Positions 21,748-54,942 of a stretch of 64,000 bases of DNA are shown in pieces (the first letter of the stretch is position 1; every line of letters begins with the position of its first letter). The translations under genes and the position numbers were made by a program. The notes beneath the pieces are model-generated. The model was not told the DNA's origin. It saw only the letters and a list, made by a program, of their open reading frames with translations, and ran no database searches. The DNA is from Candidatus Bathyarchaeota archaeon (GTDB lineage Archaea; Thermoproteota; Bathyarchaeia; Bathyarchaeales; Bathycorpusculaceae), in contig CAWHDT010000003.1 in the NCBI GenBank assembly GCA_963828195.1, positions 320,001 through 384,000 of the forward strand, given 5' to 3'.

Positions 21748-23452
21748 GGCCCTTTCTTACCGCCTTTTCGGTCGTTTCACACCGTACTTTTTGACAAATG
21801 TTTTTCCAACTGTTAAAGGTTCTTTGGAGAAGGGACGGGTAAAAATTTACCCTCAAACTTACATTTCTATGATGTTCTTCATAGCTATTTTGACTCTTCC
21901 TGTCTCAGTGTTGGGTGTATTTCTTGTTTTGATTACTCGGTTTTTACCGCTCCTTGCTTTGGTACCGCTCCCGCTTTTTGTAATCGGCGGGTTCTTGCTT
22001 GTTCCCTCAAATAATGCCAGCGACCGAGCGACAAACTTGGAGCGTGAAATACCGTTTGCGGCAGCATATATCAGCGTCATGGCATCAGGCGGCATTGCAC
22101 CCTACACCAGCTTCAAACGTCTATCAGAAGTTGATCTTATGCCAGCTATGCGTAAAGAAGCACAGGATTTAATGAAAGACGTCGAAGTTTTTGGCGTTGA
22201 CCCACTATCGGCCCTGGAGCAAGCTGCAAAAAAAGTCCCGCTGGACATATTCAAAGATTTTCTGAGCGGTTACGCTTCAACAGTTATTATCGGCGGCGAC
22301 ATAGGACATTTCCTTGAACGCAAAGCAGAAGACATATTCAAAACCCGTGCGCTGCGCGTTAAAGCCGCTGCTGAACGTCTTGGAATGCTACTTGAAACCT
22401 TCATTATTGTTATGGTTATGATGTCACTTTGTTTCTACATACTCTTCGCTGTCCAGCAAATTCAGACAGGGACCAACACAGCAACCAACTTGTCCACGTT
22501 CTCAGGCATACTGATGTACACTTACCTTTTCTCGCCACTGCTCGCAGTAGTATTCGTTTATCTAGCTCACAGTATGCAGCCCAAAACGCCGATAGTAGAA
22601 ATGCGTCCCTACAAAATTTTTGGAATATGCAGCGTAATAGGCATATTTGTATTCTTGCTGCTCACAAACTTCATGGGAGCAACTCAACTTCCTCTCTTCA
22701 CCAACCTGATAGCCATGGGTCTTGATTTGCCTATAGCTCTAACGGTAGCCTTGTTTATCACTGCTGCTCCGGCAGCCTTAGTTCACATAAAATTGGCCAA
22801 AGCTAAAGAAAGCATGGAAGCGGGAATCACGAGTTTTCTCAGAGACCTCACGGAAGTGAGGAAAACAGGTCTGTCTCCAGAAAAATGCATCGAAAGCCTA
22901 TCCACCCGAGACTATGGCTCTTTCAGCAAGGAACTTCGTAAAATCAGCGCCGACATTTCCTGGGGGATCCCGCTCAAAAAGGTCATGATGGATTTCCTTC
23001 GCCGCACGCGCAGTTGGATGGTGCAGATAGTCATGTTTCTGCTAGTTGAAACTATAGATGTTGGCGGCGGCACCATCGCCATGATTGAATCCTTGGCACG
23101 CTTTAACAGTTTGACAGCCGAAGTGGATAAAGAAAAGAAAATGTCCGTTCGCCCCTACGTGATGATGCCCTATTTGGCGTCAATCTTGCTTGTCGCAACC
23201 ACCGTCATGATGATGAGCTTTACCACAGGCTTTGGCGCAACAACTACAACCGTCACCGCGGCATCTGCAGCAAGCAAAAGCCTGATGCAAACGATATTCA
23301 TGACCGCGGTTATCTTCAACAGTTATGTCATCGGAATAGTTGCTGGAAAAATAAGTGAAGAATCAATCTCAGCTGGATTCAAACATGCTGCAATCCTTGT
23401 TATAATCGCCTGTTTAGCTGCAAAACTCATACCCATGTTCGTGAAAATCTAG
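21725..23452 (+). CDS. Type IV pilus membrane platform protein (TadC/FlaJ-like, two GspF domains)
   Basis: Two GspF-like repeats (EREIPFAAAYISVMASGG; FLRDLTEVRKTG), C-terminal AGKISE...GFKH; overlaps the ATPase stop. Confidence 0.92.
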   Translation: MPFLEKFEALSYRLFGRFTPYFLTNVFPTVKGSLEKGRVKIYPQTYISMMFFIAILTLPVSVLGVFLVLITRFLPLLALVPLPLFVIGGFLLVPSNNASDRATNLEREIPFAAAYISVMASGGIAPYTSFKRLSEVDLMPAMRKEAQDLMKDVEVFGVDPLSALEQAAKKVPLDIFKDFLSGYASTVIIGGDIGHFLERKAEDIFKTRALRVKAAAERLGMLLETFIIVMVMMSLCFYILFAVQQIQTGTNTATNLSTFSGILMYTYLFSPLLAVVFVYLAHSMQPKTPIVEMRPYKIFGICSVIGIFVFLLLTNFMGATQLPLFTNLIAMGLDLPIALTVALFITAAPAALVHIKLAKAKESMEAGITSFLRDLTEVRKTGLSPEKCIESLSTRDYGSFSKELRKISADISWGIPLKKVMMDFLRRTRSWMVQIVMFLLVETIDVGGGTIAMIESLARFNSLTAEVDKEKKMSVRPYVMMPYLASILLVATTVMMMSFTTGFGATTTTVTAASAASKSLMQTIFMTAVIFNSYVIGIVAGKISEESISAGFKHAAILVIIACLAAKLIPMFVKI

Positions 23453-46907: not shown

Positions 46908-48980
46908 TCAGTTGCAAGTTCCTTTTGAGGGGCAATCGGGATTCAGGCATGATTTCCAAGTCCTTTTCCCTTTCATGTATATACGCAACATTGGGTACCC
47001 ACAATTTTTGCAAGTGACTTTTAGGGGTTTTACTCCGCCAGTTTGAGGCAGCGGAAATGTCACGTTGCATTTTCCTTTGAAATAGTTTGTGCAGCCGACA
47101 AAACGTTTACCTGTTTTTTTGGAACGTAAAATAACTAGTTTTCCATCAGCACACTTTGGGCATGCACCAACTGTTCTTTCTTCAAGACGACCTTTATTCA
47201 AAGCTTGGCTAATTTGAATTCCTATAATGGACTCTTTTTCCTTAAGCTCAGCTAAAACTGGTTTCAAGATTTTAACAGCATTTTGCACCACAACTTCTCT
47301 TGTTTCTTTGCCTTGCTGAATTTCATTCATCTTCTCTTCAAGCTTTCTAGTTAGTTCAGGTGAGATAACAGCTGGACAATACTTTGATAGGATTTCGATG
47401 ACTTCAACGCCAAGGTCAGAAACCGCGAGACTCTTGGTTCCGTTTAGATATTTTCGGGCATACAACGTTTGTATGGTTGCTGCCCTCGTTGCTTTAGTGC
47501 CGATTTCCTCATTTTCCATTTTTAAAAGTAAAGTGCGAGGGTTGTATCTAGCAGGCGGTCTCGTAAAATTGTTTTTCACAGTTACTCTTTTAACTGAGAC
47601 TTTTTGTCCCCGAATTAAGTTGGGCAAAGCTACGTCATTCAGTTGGGCATAAGGTTTGTAAAATTGAAGCCACCCGTCACTTAGCGTTCGAACGCCATTT
47701 AAACGAAAAAGGTTCCCGCAGATACTAATATCTGCTTTCGTCCTTTGGCGGATGGCAGGCTCAGCGAAAACGGATAGGAACCTGCGAACAATAAGATCGA
47801 AAACGTTTCTTTCGCTTGCGCCAAGAGGTTTTTCTGGAAGGTTTCCAGTCGGGTAAATGGCTGGATGCGCAGAATCGGCTTTTTCCCCTTCATTGGGCTT
47901 CAAAACTGGCTGAGCGAGCAAGTAAGATGCAAATTTCTCGCAACCGGGCAGTTTAGTTAGTTTTCTTAATATGTTTCGGTAGTCGATTGTGGGCGGGAGT
48001 TTTTGGCTGCTTGTTCTGGGATACGAGATTAATGCATCCAAGTACAGGTGCTGAGCTATGTTTGAAGTACGAATCGGCATAAAGTGGAAATTTCTGTAAG
48101 CTTCACTTTGTAAAGTTCCCAAGTCAAAAGGCACCGGAGGTTTCTGCTCAAACTCTTCCACAACTGTCGTTTCTATTTGACCTTCTTTGCTTTTGCAGGC
48201 GTCTTTTACTGCCGTTGCTTCTTGGCTGCTTCTGAGGATTTTTTCATATTCAGCTTCGTATGTTGTGTCGTTTATGATTATTTTTGCGGTTATGCTCCAG
48301 AAAGGAGTGGGAACGAAACACTTTATGGTTTTTTCTCGATCTTCTAAAAATTTAAGGGTTGGCCCTTGTACTCAACCGGTGCTCAGTGTAGCGTATTGTC
48401 CGCTGCTTCTTTTCACAGCCATTGTTAAGGCTCTAGACAGGTTTATTCCGTAAAGCCAATCTACCTCATGCCTTGTCAATCCAGCTTCTACAAGAGCAAA
48501 ATCCAAATGCGGCAACAAGTGAGCGTAAGATTGCTGCAGTTCCTCTTTTGTAAGTGTAGAGTATTTCATGCGTTTAGCGGTTTTTTCTTTGCTGCCGCAA
48601 GCATACCTAAGTATGCAGTACCCTATGATGCTGCCTTCAATGTCAAAGTCGCATGCATCCACAAACTCCTCAGCGTTTTCTGCTAACTTTGCAATTACGT
48701 TTAACCAAACACGGATCTTCGATGCACTCCGTTCAGCAAGGTACCTTGGAACCCATTGATAGTCGAAAACTGGATAATCACGTTTAATTTTTTCTTTACT
48801 TGCAACGGTGTAAAGATGCCCAAGGGATGGCACAACAACGACATCGCTCTCTCTGTATGCTTTATAGTATGGAACGCCGTTCTCAACTATTTTTTGAGCT
48901 TTTCCATCTGCGTCCAAAGCCATAGCTATTCTTTTGGCGGCATCGGGTTTTTCAGTTACAATTAATGTGTACTTCCCCAA
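46908..48980 (-). pseudogene. topA: DNA topoisomerase IA interrupted by a single in-frame TGA (48372-48374)
   Basis: TEKP, GHL, CDFDIEG (TOPRIM), LSTG*VQGPTL, catalytic ISYPRT, GTKATR and C-terminal Zn ribbons all in one frame. 2073 nt = 691 codons. Confidence 0.93.
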
Positions 48981-49551: not shown

Positions 49552-49559
49552 CATTTTGG
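49552..49559 (+). repeat. Left target-site duplication CATTTTGG
   Basis: Identical 8-mer at 54935-54942 directly abutting the other element end. Confidence 0.92.
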
Positions 49560-49703
49560 GGTTCTGGTAACTTCATGGGTGATAAATCTACCTGTTAAGA
49601 ATCGGGTGATAAATCCGCTGTTTTCTGTCTCTCGGAAAAGACCTGTTAATCTTCGGGTGATGACAAGGCTTAAGTCAAGAATCACATAATAAACGATTGG
49701 GGA

Positions 49704-50126
49704 ATGAAAGAACTGTCTCAAAATATTGGAGAGAAAGCGGTTAATTATGTCTTAAATTATCTTAAAGAAACAGAGCACAAAGAAGCAAGGCGATGCAAAA
49801 AAGGCAAGAATGGTGAAGGTGCAGACATAATTTCTGCCGAAGGCAAATACATTGAAGTCAAAGGATGCGACAAAAAAGAAACCAATTTGCGAATTGCACG
49901 ACAATCATTAGAAAAGATTTCTAAAGCAGGTAAACTAAAACAAGATTCTTACTTCATCTACTATGTTTACAACATGGAGAAAGAACCCACTTTAATGATA
50001 TTCGATTATGACACTTATAACAAGAACAAATTTGAAGAGACCAAATTATTAATACAACCGTTTAAAATTGAGAAAGAAACGGGCAAACCTGAGAGAATAA
50101 AACTAAAGAAGATGACTAGCTCATAA
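49704..50126 (+). CDS. Small PD-(D/E)xK nuclease (DUF3883/NO VEIN C-terminal-like)
   Basis: E-x-AV-x-Y helix, then GADIISAEGKYIEVKG, YFIYYVYN. Confidence 0.75.
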   Translation: MKELSQNIGEKAVNYVLNYLKETEHKEARRCKKGKNGEGADIISAEGKYIEVKGCDKKETNLRIARQSLEKISKAGKLKQDSYFIYYVYNMEKEPTLMIFDYDTYNKNKFEETKLLIQPFKIEKETGKPERIKLKKMTSS

Positions 50127-51252
50127 ATTTTTTGCTCGCATTTTCTATGATGGTTTTCCACTTGTCATTTCCTTCAATGATTATTCCGCAAGCCTCGGCG
50201 GGAGTTTTGCCGTCTAACGCCTCATGAGGTCGAACATAATTATGATAAAGCTGATAGCCCTTGAGAGTAGCCGTATCGTCTTTCTTTAAGCCTCTCATGA
50301 CTTTTTCACGGTCTCTTACCTCGCCGTTCATGCGCTCCATCTTGTTATTGTTCATATCACCTCTTAGTTTTATGGCGTTAATATGCTCTGTTCTTGGAGC
50401 TTTTATGGTAAAAAACTCTTTTTTGTAAGCGTCATGATAAGCTGGAAGACCATCGGTTATGAAGGTCATGGGCTTTTTACCCATCAGTTCCTTAGACATT
50501 CTGAGTAGGTTGCGTGCGTCATGCTTATCTTTTGATTGCGCTACCTCTTGAGCAATCCAAAACCGTGTCTCATCATCCATCATAGCAAACAGATACTTCA
50601 TGTTGCCATTGATTTTAACGTATAACTCATCGGCTCTCCAAGTGTCACTAACGTTAGGCTTCATCTTCTCAAGATAATCAGTCATTAAAGCCGTGTACTT
50701 TGTTATCCACTTCAAAATTGAAACATGACTAATGGTTACGCCTTGTAGCTTTAGGAATTTCTGAACGTTCCTTAGTGACTCACCTGTGAAGTACAGTTGC
50801 ATCGCAGAGGTTATGACTTGAGGCGAAGCTTTCATATTCTCAAAACCAACATTGACGCTAAAGCGTTTGCCACATGCCTTGCACTTGTACCGCTGAAGAT
50901 CATACTTTTTGTTGTGGCGAACGGCATCTTTCACTATTTCTTCAGAGCCACAGTAAACGCATTTTGAAGTGTTCAAGGGCTGAATAACTACGTTGCGTTT
51001 GACTTGCTCCTTCATTTTGATGCTTACTTCTACCGCCACAATGTGCTTGCATTTTAAGTGTCGATAGGTGTGGTCTGGACATTCACAGTGCCATTCACCA
51101 TCAACCTGAAAAATCGCATACTCGCCATTTCCAGATTGTGATTTTACGGTGTAAAAGTTCTCTTCTATACTGATAACTTGACTCTCTTTGGATTGAGCAA
51201 TTACTAATCCTCTTTCTTCACGGACTTTTTCAAGTGTTTCAAGGCTCATCAT
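50116..51252 (-). CDS. IS6/IS240-like DDE transposase with N-terminal SWIM and Zn-ribbon domains
   Basis: SWIM CECPD...CKH; CVYC...CKAC ribbon; HTH SLRNVQ...SHVSILKW; WRADELY / ITDGLPAY / NNKMERMNG triad; HNYVRPHEAL.GKTPAE tail. Confidence 0.93.
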   Translation of the reverse strand: MMSLETLEKVREERGLVIAQSKESQVISIEENFYTVKSQSGNGEYAIFQVDGEWHCECPDHTYRHLKCKHIVAVEVSIKMKEQVKRNVVIQPLNTSKCVYCGSEEIVKDAVRHNKKYDLQRYKCKACGKRFSVNVGFENMKASPQVITSAMQLYFTGESLRNVQKFLKLQGVTISHVSILKWITKYTALMTDYLEKMKPNVSDTWRADELYVKINGNMKYLFAMMDDETRFWIAQEVAQSKDKHDARNLLRMSKELMGKKPMTFITDGLPAYHDAYKKEFFTIKAPRTEHINAIKLRGDMNNNKMERMNGEVRDREKVMRGLKKDDTATLKGYQLYHNYVRPHEALDGKTPAEACGIIIEGNDKWKTIIENASKKFMS

Positions 51253-51280
51253 ATTATATTACCTTCTTGTTTACCCACAA

Positions 51281-51397
51281 TATTACCATATGTCTTACTA
51301 ACTTATAAACATGATGGTAATACGGTAGGTAAACTAAACAAACTTTAAGGTAAACTTATATACCACAATCAAGCCATTTACCATATTGAAGGTAAAT
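51281..51397. promoter_or_regulatory. Divergent promoter region with inverted TTACC/GGTAA operator-like repeats
   Basis: TATTACCAT (51281) / ATGGTAATA (51314) and ATTTACC-N8-GGTAAAT (51376-51397); TATA-like CTTATAAA and CTTATATA. Confidence 0.55.
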
Positions 51398-51400
51398 AAG

Positions 51401-51625
51401 ATGGGCGAATTAACTACCCTTTCAGTAGCAACATCAAAAAAAGAATCTCTCAGAACAACCGTTCCAATGAGTATCCTAAAGCAGTTCAAACTATGTTCAG
51501 GTGATAAACTTGAATGGGAACTAGAAGCACGAAATAACGAATTGATTATTCTAGTAAAACCTGTTAAAAATTCAGAGTCCAAAGTGAACTCTGATTCTAA
51601 AAATTCCACTGAAAATATACGTTAG
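51401..51625 (+). CDS. AbrB/MazE/SpoVT-like DNA-binding protein
   Basis: SLRTTVPMSILKQFKLCSGDKLEW...IILVKP swapped-hairpin pattern; divergent from the transposase. Confidence 0.85.
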   Translation: MGELTTLSVATSKKESLRTTVPMSILKQFKLCSGDKLEWELEARNNELIILVKPVKNSESKVNSDSKNSTENIR

Positions 51626-51713
51626 TAATTGCCGTAAAACCTTTGAAAAAAGAAAAGTAGTAGAAGAACATATATAGAACTAATAAAAACCCGAAAGGAA
51701 AAATGTAAAAGAA

Positions 51714-53600
51714 ATGAGTCAATTTACCCGCCCCTTAGAATCTGCAACGAGAAAAGAGATAGACTTAGTTCTAAATAGCCTCGGATGGATTACTGACGAA
51801 ACAAAACCAACTTGCAACGTTTTTACTGAAAGAGCAAAAACACTAAATCAAAATGCTAGCTTCAAGGGGAATAATCCTGACTATGTTCTTTATAAATCAG
51901 GCACAGAAGACGACCCAATAGCAATTATTGAAGCGAAAAGGAAAGGTCAAAGTTTAGAAAAGGCTTTAGAACAAGCGATAGAAAAATATGCAAAACCGCT
52001 TGGTGTTTCCTTAGTTTTTGTTTACGATGCCACTTTTATAAGAACATTTGATTTAAGAAGTAAAAAGGAACTTACAATAGATGGAAATAGCTTAAAGCAG
52101 TTAGTTTCCGAAGCAAAACTGCTTCGTTTTCTGAAAACAGGTTCAAATATTGACGAAACTGCCCCTGAAGTAAAACACACTAGAGAAGAATTAATACGAA
52201 TTTTTAAATGGGTGGAAGAACTTCTAAGGCAAGAAGGTTTAAGAAACCTTGACAGGTTTGTTGAGTTTTCTAACTTATTATTCATAAAAATCATAAGCGA
52301 AATCGAAGACGACCGAGAAAAGAAAGGATTGCCTAGACGGTTAGCTAAAGACATATGTTGGGATAGCTTCTGTGATGAAAAAGACCCCAAAAAAATGCTC
52401 AACTACATTAACGATACTGTATTGAAGCAAGGTCTAGCTAAAGAGTATAATCATACTGACGATATTTTCCAAGAGAAATTAAAAATCCAAAATCCCCAAA
52501 CAGTTAAAGAAATAGTAAATAAACTATCCACCTTAACCCTACTCAACACTGAATCAGAGATTAAGGGTGATGCATTTGAGTATTTCCTAAAAAGCATAGC
52601 ATCTGGAAACGATTTAGGCGAATACTTCACCCCACGACATATCGTAAAGCTAATTGTGTCTTTGGTTAACCCAAAGTACGGAAACACCGTTTTAGACCCA
52701 TTTTGTGGAACAGGTGGATTTTTAATCGAAGCGTTTAGGCACCTAAAATCAAACGTAGACGAAAAAGACGAAAACATAGTGAAAGCACTAAAAGAAAAAA
52801 CCATTTTTGGGATTGAACTAACAGACACTTACAAAATAGCAAAAATGAATATGATAATCACTGGTGATGGGCACAACAACATAGTACAAGATGACGCTGC
52901 TAAAAACATTTTTTGGGACAAAATTATCGGTAGTTATAAAGAAAAAGACATAATCGAGGCTTTACAGGTCATAAAAGCTAAGGGGTTCGATGTAGTTTTC
53001 TCAAATATTCCCTATGGGCAACCAACAATTTTCGGAAATACTTATCCCATCCCATCAAATCAGGGCGATAGTGTCTTCATTCAATTCATAATTAAAATGT
53101 TAGGAAAAGATGGGCGATGCGGAGTGATAGTTCCAGAAGGATTACTATTCAGGTCGGAACACAAGAGTTTAAGAGAATATTTGATGCAAGAATGCGACTT
53201 AGAAGCTATCATTTCGTTGCCAAGCGGAGTGTTTTATCCCTATGCAGGTGTAAAAACAGACATTCTAATCTTTAAAAAGGGTAACTCAACTGAAAAAGTT
53301 TGGTTTTACAACGTAGAAAATGATGGATTTGAGCTATCTGCTAAAAGGAAAAAAATTCCAAAAGATGATTTGCCCGATGTTTTAGCCAAATTTCCATTGA
53401 GAGAAAACTCCGCTAAAAGTTTTAGTGTCCTGAAAAAAACTATAGAAAATAACGAGTTTAGACTCAATTTAACAAGTTACATTGAGAATAAAACAGGGGA
53501 ATTGACTTTCAAGTCTCCAATGCAAGTACTTGACGAAATCAATAAAATAGAACTAGAAATCAATAAAGAACTTGAAGTCTTAAACAAGATGATGCAATGA
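51714..53600 (+). CDS. Fused restriction endonuclease / N6-adenine methyltransferase (HsdR_N + HsdM-like)
   Basis: N-terminal PDYVLY...IIEAKR nuclease motif; GEYFTPRHIV, DPFCGTGGF, SNIPY (motif IV variant), IVPEG. Confidence 0.92.
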   Translation: MSQFTRPLESATRKEIDLVLNSLGWITDETKPTCNVFTERAKTLNQNASFKGNNPDYVLYKSGTEDDPIAIIEAKRKGQSLEKALEQAIEKYAKPLGVSLVFVYDATFIRTFDLRSKKELTIDGNSLKQLVSEAKLLRFLKTGSNIDETAPEVKHTREELIRIFKWVEELLRQEGLRNLDRFVEFSNLLFIKIISEIEDDREKKGLPRRLAKDICWDSFCDEKDPKKMLNYINDTVLKQGLAKEYNHTDDIFQEKLKIQNPQTVKEIVNKLSTLTLLNTESEIKGDAFEYFLKSIASGNDLGEYFTPRHIVKLIVSLVNPKYGNTVLDPFCGTGGFLIEAFRHLKSNVDEKDENIVKALKEKTIFGIELTDTYKIAKMNMIITGDGHNNIVQDDAAKNIFWDKIIGSYKEKDIIEALQVIKAKGFDVVFSNIPYGQPTIFGNTYPIPSNQGDSVFIQFIIKMLGKDGRCGVIVPEGLLFRSEHKSLREYLMQECDLEAIISLPSGVFYPYAGVKTDILIFKKGNSTEKVWFYNVENDGFELSAKRKKIPKDDLPDVLAKFPLRENSAKSFSVLKKTIENNEFRLNLTSYIENKTGELTFKSPMQVLDEINKIELEINKELEVLNKMMQ

Positions 53601-54772
53601 CTGACTTTGTAGGAATCATTGACGTATGCGAAATTAATCCATCAAAAAAAATAGCAAAACTAAACACAAACGAGCAAGTTAGTTTTGTAGAAATGTCCTC
53701 AGTCTCCGAAGATGGCAAAATAATCAACGAGCAAACGTGTCTCTTGAAAAATGTAGCGAAAGGTTTTACATATTTTGTCAAAGGCGACATAATCTTAGCC
53801 AAAATAACCCCTTGTTTTGAAAATGGAAAGAGAGCATATGTCAATAACATAAAGAACACAATTGGGTTTGGAAGCACTGAATTTCTCGTTTTACGACCTA
53901 ACGAAAAGATTGTACCTGAATACCTATATTATATGGTTAGCAGAAAAAAGTTTAGAGAAGATTTAACGCCTCTATTGGTTGGAACCGCAGGTCAAAAAAG
54001 GTTACATAAAGACGTTTTAGCAAATTATCTAATTCCTCTTCCATCTAAGCAGAAACAATTTGATATAGTCAACAAGCTAAAACAGATTGAAAAAATAAAG
54101 AAGTTAAGGATTACACAAAATGAGGCTTTTGACGAATTGATAAAAAGTAAGTTTTTGGCTTTGTTTGGAAACCCCTCGCAAAGTGATTTTTCACTTGTGG
54201 AGCTTCGTACCGTTGCTAAGTTGAATATGGGTGGAACACCATCAACCCAAAAACCTGAGTATTATGTTAATGGTGACATTAATTGGATGAAGTCGGGAGA
54301 CATTAAGTCCGATTTTGTCAAGATTATTCCGAACAAAATAACTAAGTTAGGATTAAAAAATTCCAATGCTAAAATGTATTCTATCGGTGACGTGGTTATC
54401 GCTTTAAACGGACAGGGTAAAACCAGAGCGACAACTGGAATTTTGAAGATAGAAACTGCAAGCAATCAGTCAGTAGCTTCAATATCTCCAAATTTGGATG
54501 TATTGCTTCCCGATTATTTGCATTTTGATTTGAAATATAGGTATCAAGAACTACGAAATTTAACGGGTGATAAGCAAAGAAGTGGTCTCAATTTGAATAT
54601 ATTGAGACAATTGGAAATTCCCTTGCCTCCACGGGAATTACAAAGTCAATTTGGCGATTTTGTAAGACAAGTGGAAATTATGAGAGAAAAACAAAATTCT
54701 TCTAAGATTGAAGCTGAACAACTATTTGAATCCGTTTTGAATGAACTATATGTTCCCAACGTTTCAAATTGA
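53597..54772 (+). CDS. hsdS: Type I-like specificity subunit with two TRDs
   Basis: AKITPCFENGK...GSTEF...GTAGQKR...IPLPS..Q; second TRD GGTPS...IPLPP.ELQ..F; ATGA overlap with the upstream gene. Confidence 0.92.
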   Translation: MTDFVGIIDVCEINPSKKIAKLNTNEQVSFVEMSSVSEDGKIINEQTCLLKNVAKGFTYFVKGDIILAKITPCFENGKRAYVNNIKNTIGFGSTEFLVLRPNEKIVPEYLYYMVSRKKFREDLTPLLVGTAGQKRLHKDVLANYLIPLPSKQKQFDIVNKLKQIEKIKKLRITQNEAFDELIKSKFLALFGNPSQSDFSLVELRTVAKLNMGGTPSTQKPEYYVNGDINWMKSGDIKSDFVKIIPNKITKLGLKNSNAKMYSIGDVVIALNGQGKTRATTGILKIETASNQSVASISPNLDVLLPDYLHFDLKYRYQELRNLTGDKQRSGLNLNILRQLEIPLPPRELQSQFGDFVRQVEIMREKQNSSKIEAEQLFESVLNELYVPNVSN

Positions 54773-54934
54773 AAAGCATTTTATCTTGTTAAGAAATTGA
54801 AATTTAACTACTATTTTTTCTAATCCAAGATTTTATCACTCTGTCACCCGTTTATTTACATGTACATTTCAAAGGCTTAATCCGTCACCCGAAAACTAAC
54901 AGAGAAAACCATCGCCTATGAAGTTAACAGAACC

Positions 54935-54942
54935 CATTTTGG
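54935..54942 (+). repeat. Right target-site duplication CATTTTGG
   Basis: Identical to 49552-49559. Confidence 0.92.

Follow-up and report, generated by a model that had tools for sequence, protein, structure and literature searches.

Iterated bipartite sites at the ends of E1, an IS6-like, cargo-carrying transposon of archaea

The E1 locus

The window, meaning the whole 64-kb stretch of DNA analyzed here, contains a 5375-bp transposon (referred to here as E1) at positions 49560-54934, with GGTTCTG-type termini and an 8-bp target-site duplication (TSD), CATTTTGG. E1 is flanked by a topoisomerase gene and an STT3/AglB-type oligosaccharyltransferase gene, and its ends form a 51-nt imperfect inverted repeat that is 75% complementary. 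We found the empty site in a genome of the same genus (G004, locus L105), where a single CATTTTGG directly joins both E1 flanks; therefore, E1 is a real insertion and 49560-54934 are its limits. The element and its genes are as follows.

49552..49559, left copy of the TSD CATTTTGG, 8 bp
49560..54934, whole transposon E1, 5375 bp, termini GGTTCTGG... and GGTTCTGT...
49704..50126, + strand, cargo ORF of 140 aa with a NOV_C (DUF3883-like) domain (Pfam, 42.1 bits); homologue in element L059
50116..51252, - strand, transposase of 378 aa: SWIM-type Zn domain (approximately 1-90), Zn ribbon (approximately 98-132), three-helix HTH (144-194), DDE RNase-H core (204-378)
51334..51609, - strand, small ORF of 91 aa immediately upstream of the transposase gene and on the same strand; no family match
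51714..53600, + strand, type I-like N6-adenine methyltransferase of 628 aa with an N-terminal HSDR_N-like domain (Pfam N6_Mtase 198 bits, HSDR_N 32.5 bits)
53597..54772, + strand, specificity (HsdS-like) subunit of 391 aa (Pfam Methylase_S 93 bits; PADLOC Specificity_I 185 bits)
54935..54942, right copy of the TSD CATTTTGG, 8 bp

The 628-aa methyltransferase scores 329 bits against PADLOC MTase_I and matches type I M subunits in the PDB at E 8.5e-37. A homologue of the 91-aa ORF is likewise placed in one relative (L056:7677-7949), 52 bp upstream of the transposase gene. A sigma-70 promoter and terminator scan of E1 returned 14 promoter-like sites compared to 17.6 expected, with models that are uninformative for an archaeon. 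To the left of E1, the topoisomerase gene (46908-48980) is one reading frame broken by a single in-frame TGA (48372-48374, - strand) in a conserved-looking topoisomerase stretch (...LSTG*VQGPTL); a nonsense mutation, recoding, or an error in sequencing may account for this TGA.

Each end of E1 contains three bipartite sites, one terminal and two further inside.

49564-49582, + strand, L1, terminal site: CTGGTA-ACTTCA-TGGGTGA (also split CTGGTAA-CTTCA-TGGGTGA), directly after the GGTT terminus
49592-49609, + strand, L2, internal site: CTGTTA-AGAAT-CGGGTGA (CTGTTAA-GAAT-CGGGTGA), 28 bp past L1, 13/15 identity to L1
49643-49660, + strand, L3, third site: CTGTTA-ATCTT-CGGGTGA (CTGTTAA-TCTT-CGGGTGA), 51 bp past L2, 15/15 identity to L2
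54930-54912, - strand, R1, terminal site: CTGTTA-ACTTCA-TAGGCGA (CTGTTAA-CTTCA-TAGGCGA)
54902-54885, - strand, R2, internal site: CTGTTA-GTTTT-CGGGTGA (CTGTTAG-TTTT-CGGGTGA), 28 bp past R1
54861-54844, - strand, R3, third site: ATGTAA-ATAAA-CGGGTGA (ATGTAAA-TAAA-CGGGTGA), 41 bp past R2, two mismatches to the pattern

These six sites, three per end, had been proposed in an earlier sequence-only reading of this DNA, and we found all of them at the positions listed above. The same reading held that the first two sites are equally spaced at both ends while the third is not, and this is the case: the L1-L2 and R1-R2 distances are both 28 bp, whereas the third site lies 51 bp past L2 and 41 bp past R2, a difference of 10 bp. 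The pattern it gave, CTGTTA-N5-CGGGTGA, describes the internal sites but not the terminal ones, where the gap is 6 nt by that reading's own parsing.

We found that CTGTTA-N5-CGGGTGA, with up to two mismatches, has four matches in the 64-kb window (three exact matches and R3), all of which sit in the E1 ends and face inward. The mean in shuffled windows was 0.74, and four matches were attained in 1 of 100 shuffles. Across the whole 2.83-Mb genome, with up to one mismatch, there are five matches, three of which are E1 sites and one the end of a related element, while the reversed pattern used as a control has a single match. Non-autonomous derivatives with E1 ends were not found in this genome. 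The only further match to the E1 ends there is 40 bp left over from an E1-like left end (G000:C5:22237), cut within site 2 by a family member of another half-site class (22237-22300).

The E1 family and its iterated end sites

The genome that contains E1 has seven full-length transposase genes, that of E1 and six homologues with 59-68% identity, and three further elements in it have GGTTCTG termini and 8-bp TSDs. A search of one genome per prokaryote species (GTDB representatives) returned 254 relatives, and 80 loci were kept. These loci are mostly from Bathyarchaeia, with others from Methanoperedens, Nitrososphaeria, Methanoregula, and two Asgard lineages. Relatives at L022 (the closest, with 85% identity), L051, L055, and L057 come from MAGs labelled as bacterial (Limnocylindrales, Gammaproteobacteria, Saccharibacteria), which could be the result of mis-binning or inter-domain transfer.

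Elements were delimited by a GGTTCTG-like terminus on either side of the transposase gene, ends identical at 16 or more of 24 positions, and a perfect 8-bp TSD. By these rules we delimited 48 elements, 2.1-9.2 kb in size, in 47 of the 80 loci; the remaining 33 loci (possible causes are short contigs, ends beyond the sequence, and imperfect repeats) were left out of the counts. With the four elements of the E1 genome this gave 52 elements and 104 ends, among which the pairing of gene to ends may be wrong at nested or adjacent loci (contigs C4 and C5 of the E1 genome, and L030). Two elements of the E1 genome (G000:C4:105826-109934 and G000:C5:545557-551607) have matching ends and TSDs and each contain an extra unpaired end of another half-site class (C4:108727 and C5:546277, respectively), so the resident transposase gene may belong to either class of ends. 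L030:1448-7545 contains a head-to-tail array of two distinct family members plus one more end, in which one 8-bp sequence, TGATATTT, recurs between the units and on either side of the array. The array recalls those of IS26 and points to an end already in place that was inserted at repeatedly or served as a target. Family members often sit inside the subterminal sites of others or immediately behind them (approximate positions L022:4400, L053:120, L065:2470, L043:9540, L029:9590, and L072:4690). An apparent end pair at L111, in a staphylococcal IS257 region, was spurious and was dropped.

To describe the cargo of the family, 145 ORFs, each 90 aa or longer and drawn from 51 elements (L016-L018 and L022-L100), were clustered with the four of E1. 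The majority of cargo ORFs have no Pfam match at 1e-5, and the identifiable ones are dominated by restriction-modification and defence-type genes. N6_Mtase cargo is present at seven loci in addition to E1, several with an HSDR_N-type N-terminal domain and some adjoining a separate S-subunit gene. Other defence-type cargo includes N6_N4 methylases (three loci, one beside a BsaWI-type endonuclease), GmrSD (two), HEPN (one), and ParB_N with DUF488 (one). A conserved accessory gene was considered as the source of a protein that binds the internal sites and was rejected; the largest cargo cluster, counting the 145 ORFs and the four of E1, covers eight loci. Since no cargo family is common to the elements, the transposase is the sole candidate for an element-encoded reader of the sites. 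The E1 family is best explained as a large, mainly archaeal group of unit transposons related to IS6/IS26, with the transposase as their single conserved protein.

We defined the proximal half-site as element positions 5-11 and the distal half-site as positions 17-24, and site 2 was scored out of 15 against the terminal site of the same end. We found that 88 of the 104 ends contain an internal, same-strand copy of their own terminal site (at least 12/15); the two controls, the opposite strand of that stretch and the outer flank, gave 0 of 104 and 5 of 100, respectively. The remaining 16 ends scored below 12/15, mostly 10-11. The motif is thus kept at the ends of homologous elements, and its loss there had been named beforehand as the result that would speak against the proposal. 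The one-base difference between terminal and internal gaps seen in E1 is general across the family, with a half-site spacer of 4 nt at the internal site in 85 of the 88 ends versus 5 nt at the terminal site. Across the family, the invariant positions read GGTTCTGT-A-A...T..CG...G.T at the terminal site and TGT-A-A...TCG...G.T at the internal one.

The distance between sites 1 and 2 takes few values. Site 2 starts at offset 32-34 in 53 ends, 41-44 in 28, 52-53 in five, and 74 in two, with none between. Where both ends have a site 2 (46 elements), the left offset equals the right one in 25 elements and differs from it by 1 in 14, by 10 in three, and by 11 in four; differences of 2-9 never occur. 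Our data indicate that the spacing of sites is quantised in steps of approximately 10 bp, which may reflect a constant helical phase between the bound proteins.

Three sites per end, as the sequence-only reading had it, is correct for the clade of E1 but not for the family at large, where two is the norm. With site 2 as the query, a third site (at least 12/15) was found in 4 of 98 ends, a set that does not include the right end of E1; the two controls gave 1 of 98 and 1 of 94, and we rejected the third site as a family-wide feature. Within the E1 clade, all six visible ends contain three sites: both ends of E1, both ends of L022, and one end each of L023 and L101. Sites are at 5, 33, and 74 at both ends of L022 (85% identical transposase), with the 41-bp third spacing seen between R2 and R3, and at 5, 33, and 84 in L023 (77% identical transposase), with the 51-bp third spacing of the E1 left end. 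The spacing in L101 (73% identical transposase), 28 and 51 bp, is also that of the E1 left end. The third site of the E1 clade, 41 or 51 bp past site 2, therefore obeys the same spacing rule as site 2. Overall, two sites per end are the rule of the family, and three are specific to the E1 clade.

Transposase domains, half-site covariation, and the end complex

The E1 transposase scores above the cutoff of the NCBIfam transpos_IS6 model (127.8 bits versus a cutoff of 125, over residues 137-340). Against Pfam, it matches DDE_Tnp_IS240 (63.8 bits) and SWIM (21.9 bits), with the SWIM Zn finger at residues 52-75, and residues 98-132 match the NCBIfam IS1/IS1595 Zn domain (29.8 bits versus a cutoff of 28). 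An AF2 model of the transposase, built from 51 family sequences (pLDDT 79.9, pTM 0.70), predicts an N-terminal helix and beta domain (4-85), a beta-rich segment (88-132), three helices (144-194), and an RNase-H-like core from residue 204. Foldseek searches with this model matched the DDE enzymes ISCth4, retroviral integrases, IstA, TnsB, and MuA.

Both half-sites vary across the family. Variants of the proximal half (CTGTGAA, CTGTTAC, CTGTCAA, CTGTAAA, and CTGTTAA) differ between elements and match within an element. The distal half occurs as GGGTGA, GTCTGT, GTTTGG, GGTTGA, GTCGGA, GTCACC, TGGACA, and many others; in all, the 104 ends contain 47 different 6-mers. The distal half of the internal site matches that of its own terminal site at 6.69 of 8 positions on average, versus 4.77 of 8 for the terminal sites of other elements. 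We calculated the association between half-sites and transposase domains as a partial rank correlation over 1326 element pairs, with identity of the DDE domain controlled and 999 label permutations.

Distal half: SWIM 0.258, Zn ribbon 0.456, HTH 0.264 (p = 0.001 for all three)
Proximal half: SWIM -0.055 (p = 0.81), Zn ribbon 0.002 (p = 0.46), HTH 0.254 (p = 0.001)

In sliding windows of 20 residues, the correlation with the distal half peaks at residues 101-150 (0.33-0.41) and that with the proximal half at residues 171-200 (0.29-0.36), while in the catalytic core the correlation stays between -0.12 and 0.21, for the most part close to zero. These values come from 52 related elements, with site 2 located by its likeness to site 1 and shared ancestry removed in part by the control for DDE identity. 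A weak correlation with the distal half is also seen for the SWIM and HTH regions. The sequence-only reading had suggested that the bipartite site is read by two DNA-binding domains. This idea gains correlative support, with the distal half associated with residues of approximately 100-150 (the Zn ribbon) and the proximal half with residues of approximately 171-200 (the HTH), and the correlations fit two putative reading heads, the Zn ribbon and the HTH.

From these patterns, we infer that the end sites are bound by the transposase and build a multi-protomer transpososome similar to those of IS21 and Mu, in which terminal protomers would cleave and join while internal ones would pair the ends. 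We place the probability of this reading at approximately 70%. Its higher-order assembly is proposed because of the analogy with IS21, as that system is described in PMC10122671. Each bipartite site would bind one transposase protomer. The HTH would read the conserved proximal half, (C/A)TGTnAA, as the HTH of Tnp26 reads TGT in IS26, and the Zn-ribbon region would read the element-specific distal half, CGnnnGnT. Protomers on the terminal sites, beside the GGTT cleavage end, would carry out the chemistry, both cleaving and joining. Protomers on the internal sites, in helical phase with the terminal one, would have a structural role, bringing the ends together and activating the complex. On this model, a complex of two paired ends would contain four or more protomers. 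This arrangement would parallel the IstA tetramer of IS21, where R1 is occupied by the catalytic subunits and R2 by the structural ones.

The internal sites might instead be bound by the transposase for regulation, i.e., for titration or autoregulation, for blocking read-through transcription into the ends, or for marking the ends against or for insertion by other members. Family members have repeatedly inserted just inside or beside the subterminal region (C5:22237 in the E1 genome, L022, L053, L065, L043, L029, and L072), and this, like the tandem elements of L030 that are split by the same 8 bp, hints that bound ends influence targeting. Furthermore, the transposase gene of several relatives ends 51-71 bp from the right terminus, beside site 2. 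However, in E1 the left end and the transposase gene are 556 bp apart and the gene starts in the middle of the element, so the sites cannot be its operator. Regulation would also account less well than a fixed protein assembly for spacing that is strictly quantised in 10-bp steps from the terminal site and for a layout that is identical at both ends, and we consider a purely regulatory role unlikely.

Binding of the internal repeats by some other protein, either a host factor or an accessory protein encoded by the cargo, is far less probable. The 91-aa ORF upstream of the transposase gene in both E1 and L056 could encode such a protein, and most cargo ORFs belong to no known family, yet no cargo family occurs in more than eight loci. 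Internal sites copy their own terminal site in both halves, and their variable bases covary with the DNA-binding regions of the transposase. Inside a single genome, a host factor would not follow element-specific sequences, and the five readable element types of the E1 genome have five different half-site combinations. The internal copies could also be functionless relics of earlier nested insertions or duplicated ends, which would suit the frequency with which ends of family members nest or abut. We consider this most improbable: the internal sites have no GGTT terminus, their spacer is one base short of the terminal one in 85 of 88 ends, the two ends share their orientation and quantised distances, and they are kept across transposases only 53-68% identical to that of E1 in hosts from several archaeal phyla.

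The transposase-bound, multi-protomer end complex thus remains our preferred reading. We found no description of the E1 family, or of iterated ends in IS6-like elements, in a literature search whose scope stopped short of ISfinder and the supplements of two IS6 reviews, which possibly hold TIR alignments of the clostridial group. Tentatively, and with somewhat less than even confidence, we propose that E1 represents an undescribed and widespread archaeal family of IS6-related unit transposons that carries restriction-modification and defence genes, that independently evolved a multi-protomer transpososome in the style of IS21 and Mu, and whose modular end recognition would combine a conserved HTH half-site with a fast-evolving Zn-ribbon half-site, yielding dozens of mutually orthogonal transposase-end pairs. 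If this is true, one genome can be home to several family members that do not mobilise one another. The 47 distal 6-mers in the 104 ends are natural specificity variants, with which the assignment of domains to half-sites can be tested directly. The family also points to a vehicle for the mobility of defence genes in poorly studied archaea (Bathyarchaeia, Methanoperedens, Nitrososphaeria, and Asgard lineages).

Comparison with known systems

IS6/IS26 elements are minimal insertion sequences with one gene, a 14-bp inverted repeat, and no internal cargo. Pfam and NCBIfam place the E1 transposase in IS6/IS240 and not among TnsB/MuA-type enzymes, and its core is approximately 25-29% identical to IS26/IS257-type proteins. 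Similar to IS6/IS26 transposases, that of E1 has its HTH directly N-terminal to the DDE core and exceeds the NCBIfam IS6 cutoff. The TSD is 8 bp, as in IS6/IS26, and perfect around E1, the 48 relatives, and three more elements of the E1 genome. The terminus GGTTCTGT of E1 equals the first 8 bases of the 14-bp IS6 consensus GGTTCTGTTGCAAA given by Harmer and Hall (PMC6807381), who, in the accessible part of their article, describe IS6 ends solely as terminal inverted repeats. IS6/IS26 termini are characterised by an initial GG and a G at position 7 in addition to this consensus. Positions 1-8 (GGTTCTGT) are 91-100% conserved in 85 ends of the E1 family, whereas positions 9-14 differ from the consensus (nAAgTc) and the putative recognition sequence extends out to approximately position 24. 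Pong et al. (PMC8477213) report that Tnp26 requires TGT at TIR positions 6-8, and E1 retains this triplet.

The differences from IS6/IS26 lie in the protein, the size, and the ends. With 378 aa and two extra N-terminal Zn domains, the E1 transposase exceeds the 220-250 aa of IS6/IS26 transposases. Elements of the E1 family are 2.1-9.2 kb and contain cargo (E1 itself is 5375 bp with four further ORFs), whereas IS6/IS26 elements are 0.7-0.9 kb with one gene. There are two or three bipartite sites per end, three in E1, rather than one 14-bp TIR. The sole hint in the E1 family of the cointegrate-only movement of IS6/IS26 elements (copy-in or targeted conservative) is the L030 tandem. The archaeal IS6 entries of ISfinder have transposases of 211-231 aa according to Harmer and Hall (PMC6807381), who state that they found no experimental data on long or archaeal IS6-like elements. 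In the review of Varani et al. (PMC7986276), as far as its text was available, a single IS6 member with a passenger gene is described, along with a clostridial clade with Zn-finger transposases of 340-350 aa, and the terms 'subterminal', 'internal repeat', and 'binding sites' have no occurrence.

Three elements from outside the family were used as controls: one copy of IS26, one 745-bp Natronococcus IS6, and one copy of ISCpe7. Neither the IS26 copy nor the Natronococcus IS6 contains an internal copy of its end above the reverse-strand control (7-9/15 versus 8-9/15). For ISCpe7, whose limits were set by comparing plasmid copies and empty sites, inspection by eye of one copy showed no second TGTTAA-type site within approximately 150 nt of either end. 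The contrast with classic IS6 drawn by the sequence-only reading thus holds as far as these three elements go, all of them without a second site.

The best matches to the E1 transposase in 72,556 plasmid records are from the ISCpe7 group, the 'long' clostridial IS6-like elements (clade VII of Harmer and Hall, clade h of Varani). ISCpe7-type transposases are approximately 28-31% identical to that of E1 over residues 96-366, which span the Zn ribbon, HTH, and DDE core, and the ISCpe7 terminus, ATCTGTTAAGTT, holds the same CTGTTAAGT proximal motif as the E1 sites. However, ISCpe7 is a 1.27-kb insertion sequence from bacterial hosts that has neither a SWIM-type N-terminal domain nor cargo, and its end does not start with GG. 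The ISCpe7 type combines a Zn-finger extension with an HTH and a DDE core in 340-353 aa (elements of 1.2-1.35 kb); to this, E1 adds the SWIM domain, a larger size, archaeal hosts, and iterated ends.

By analogy, the nearest functional parallel to E1 may be IS21. As described in PMC10122671, each IS21 end contains two bipartite direct repeats, and each half of a repeat is read by one of two HTH domains. The same source reports that both repeats are needed for integration, and that IstA is a tetramer whose R1-bound subunits are catalytic and whose R2-bound subunits are structural. The E1 family resembles IS21 in having bipartite direct repeats in each end, here in 88 of 104 ends, and the IstA structure 8b4h is among the Foldseek matches to the E1 transposase model (E 2.1e-4). 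In contrast to IS21, the transposase of E1 is of another lineage, and no IstB-like AAA+ partner is encoded by E1 or by the 145 cargo ORFs of 51 elements. The TSD is 8 bp rather than the 5 bp reported for IS21 (PMC10122671), and repeats are spaced in variable steps of 10 bp rather than separated by 23 bp, the IS21 value from that source. The putative second reader is a Zn ribbon in E1 and a second HTH in IS21. The iterated bipartite ends may show how E1 works, not that it is a member of IS21.

Mu, Tn7/TnsB, and Tn552-type ends contain several transposase sites each. E1 is similar in having several sites per end and in a mild asymmetry, with the third sites unequally spaced on the left and right, but it has no ATPase (TnsC, MuB, TniB) or target-selector genes and its DNA-binding domains are different. 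A layout with several sites per end has so far been known from other transposon families, e.g., IS21 and Mu. The E1 family has kept the terminus, the 8-bp duplication, and the catalytic core of IS6 and has added two zinc domains, kilobases of cargo, and iterated bipartite ends like those of IS21. It is a natural case of a simple insertion sequence turning into a cargo-carrying transposon with what would be a more elaborate end complex. E1 combines the chemistry and terminus of IS6-like elements with an end architecture like that of IS21 and Mu and a cargo capacity unusual for IS6.
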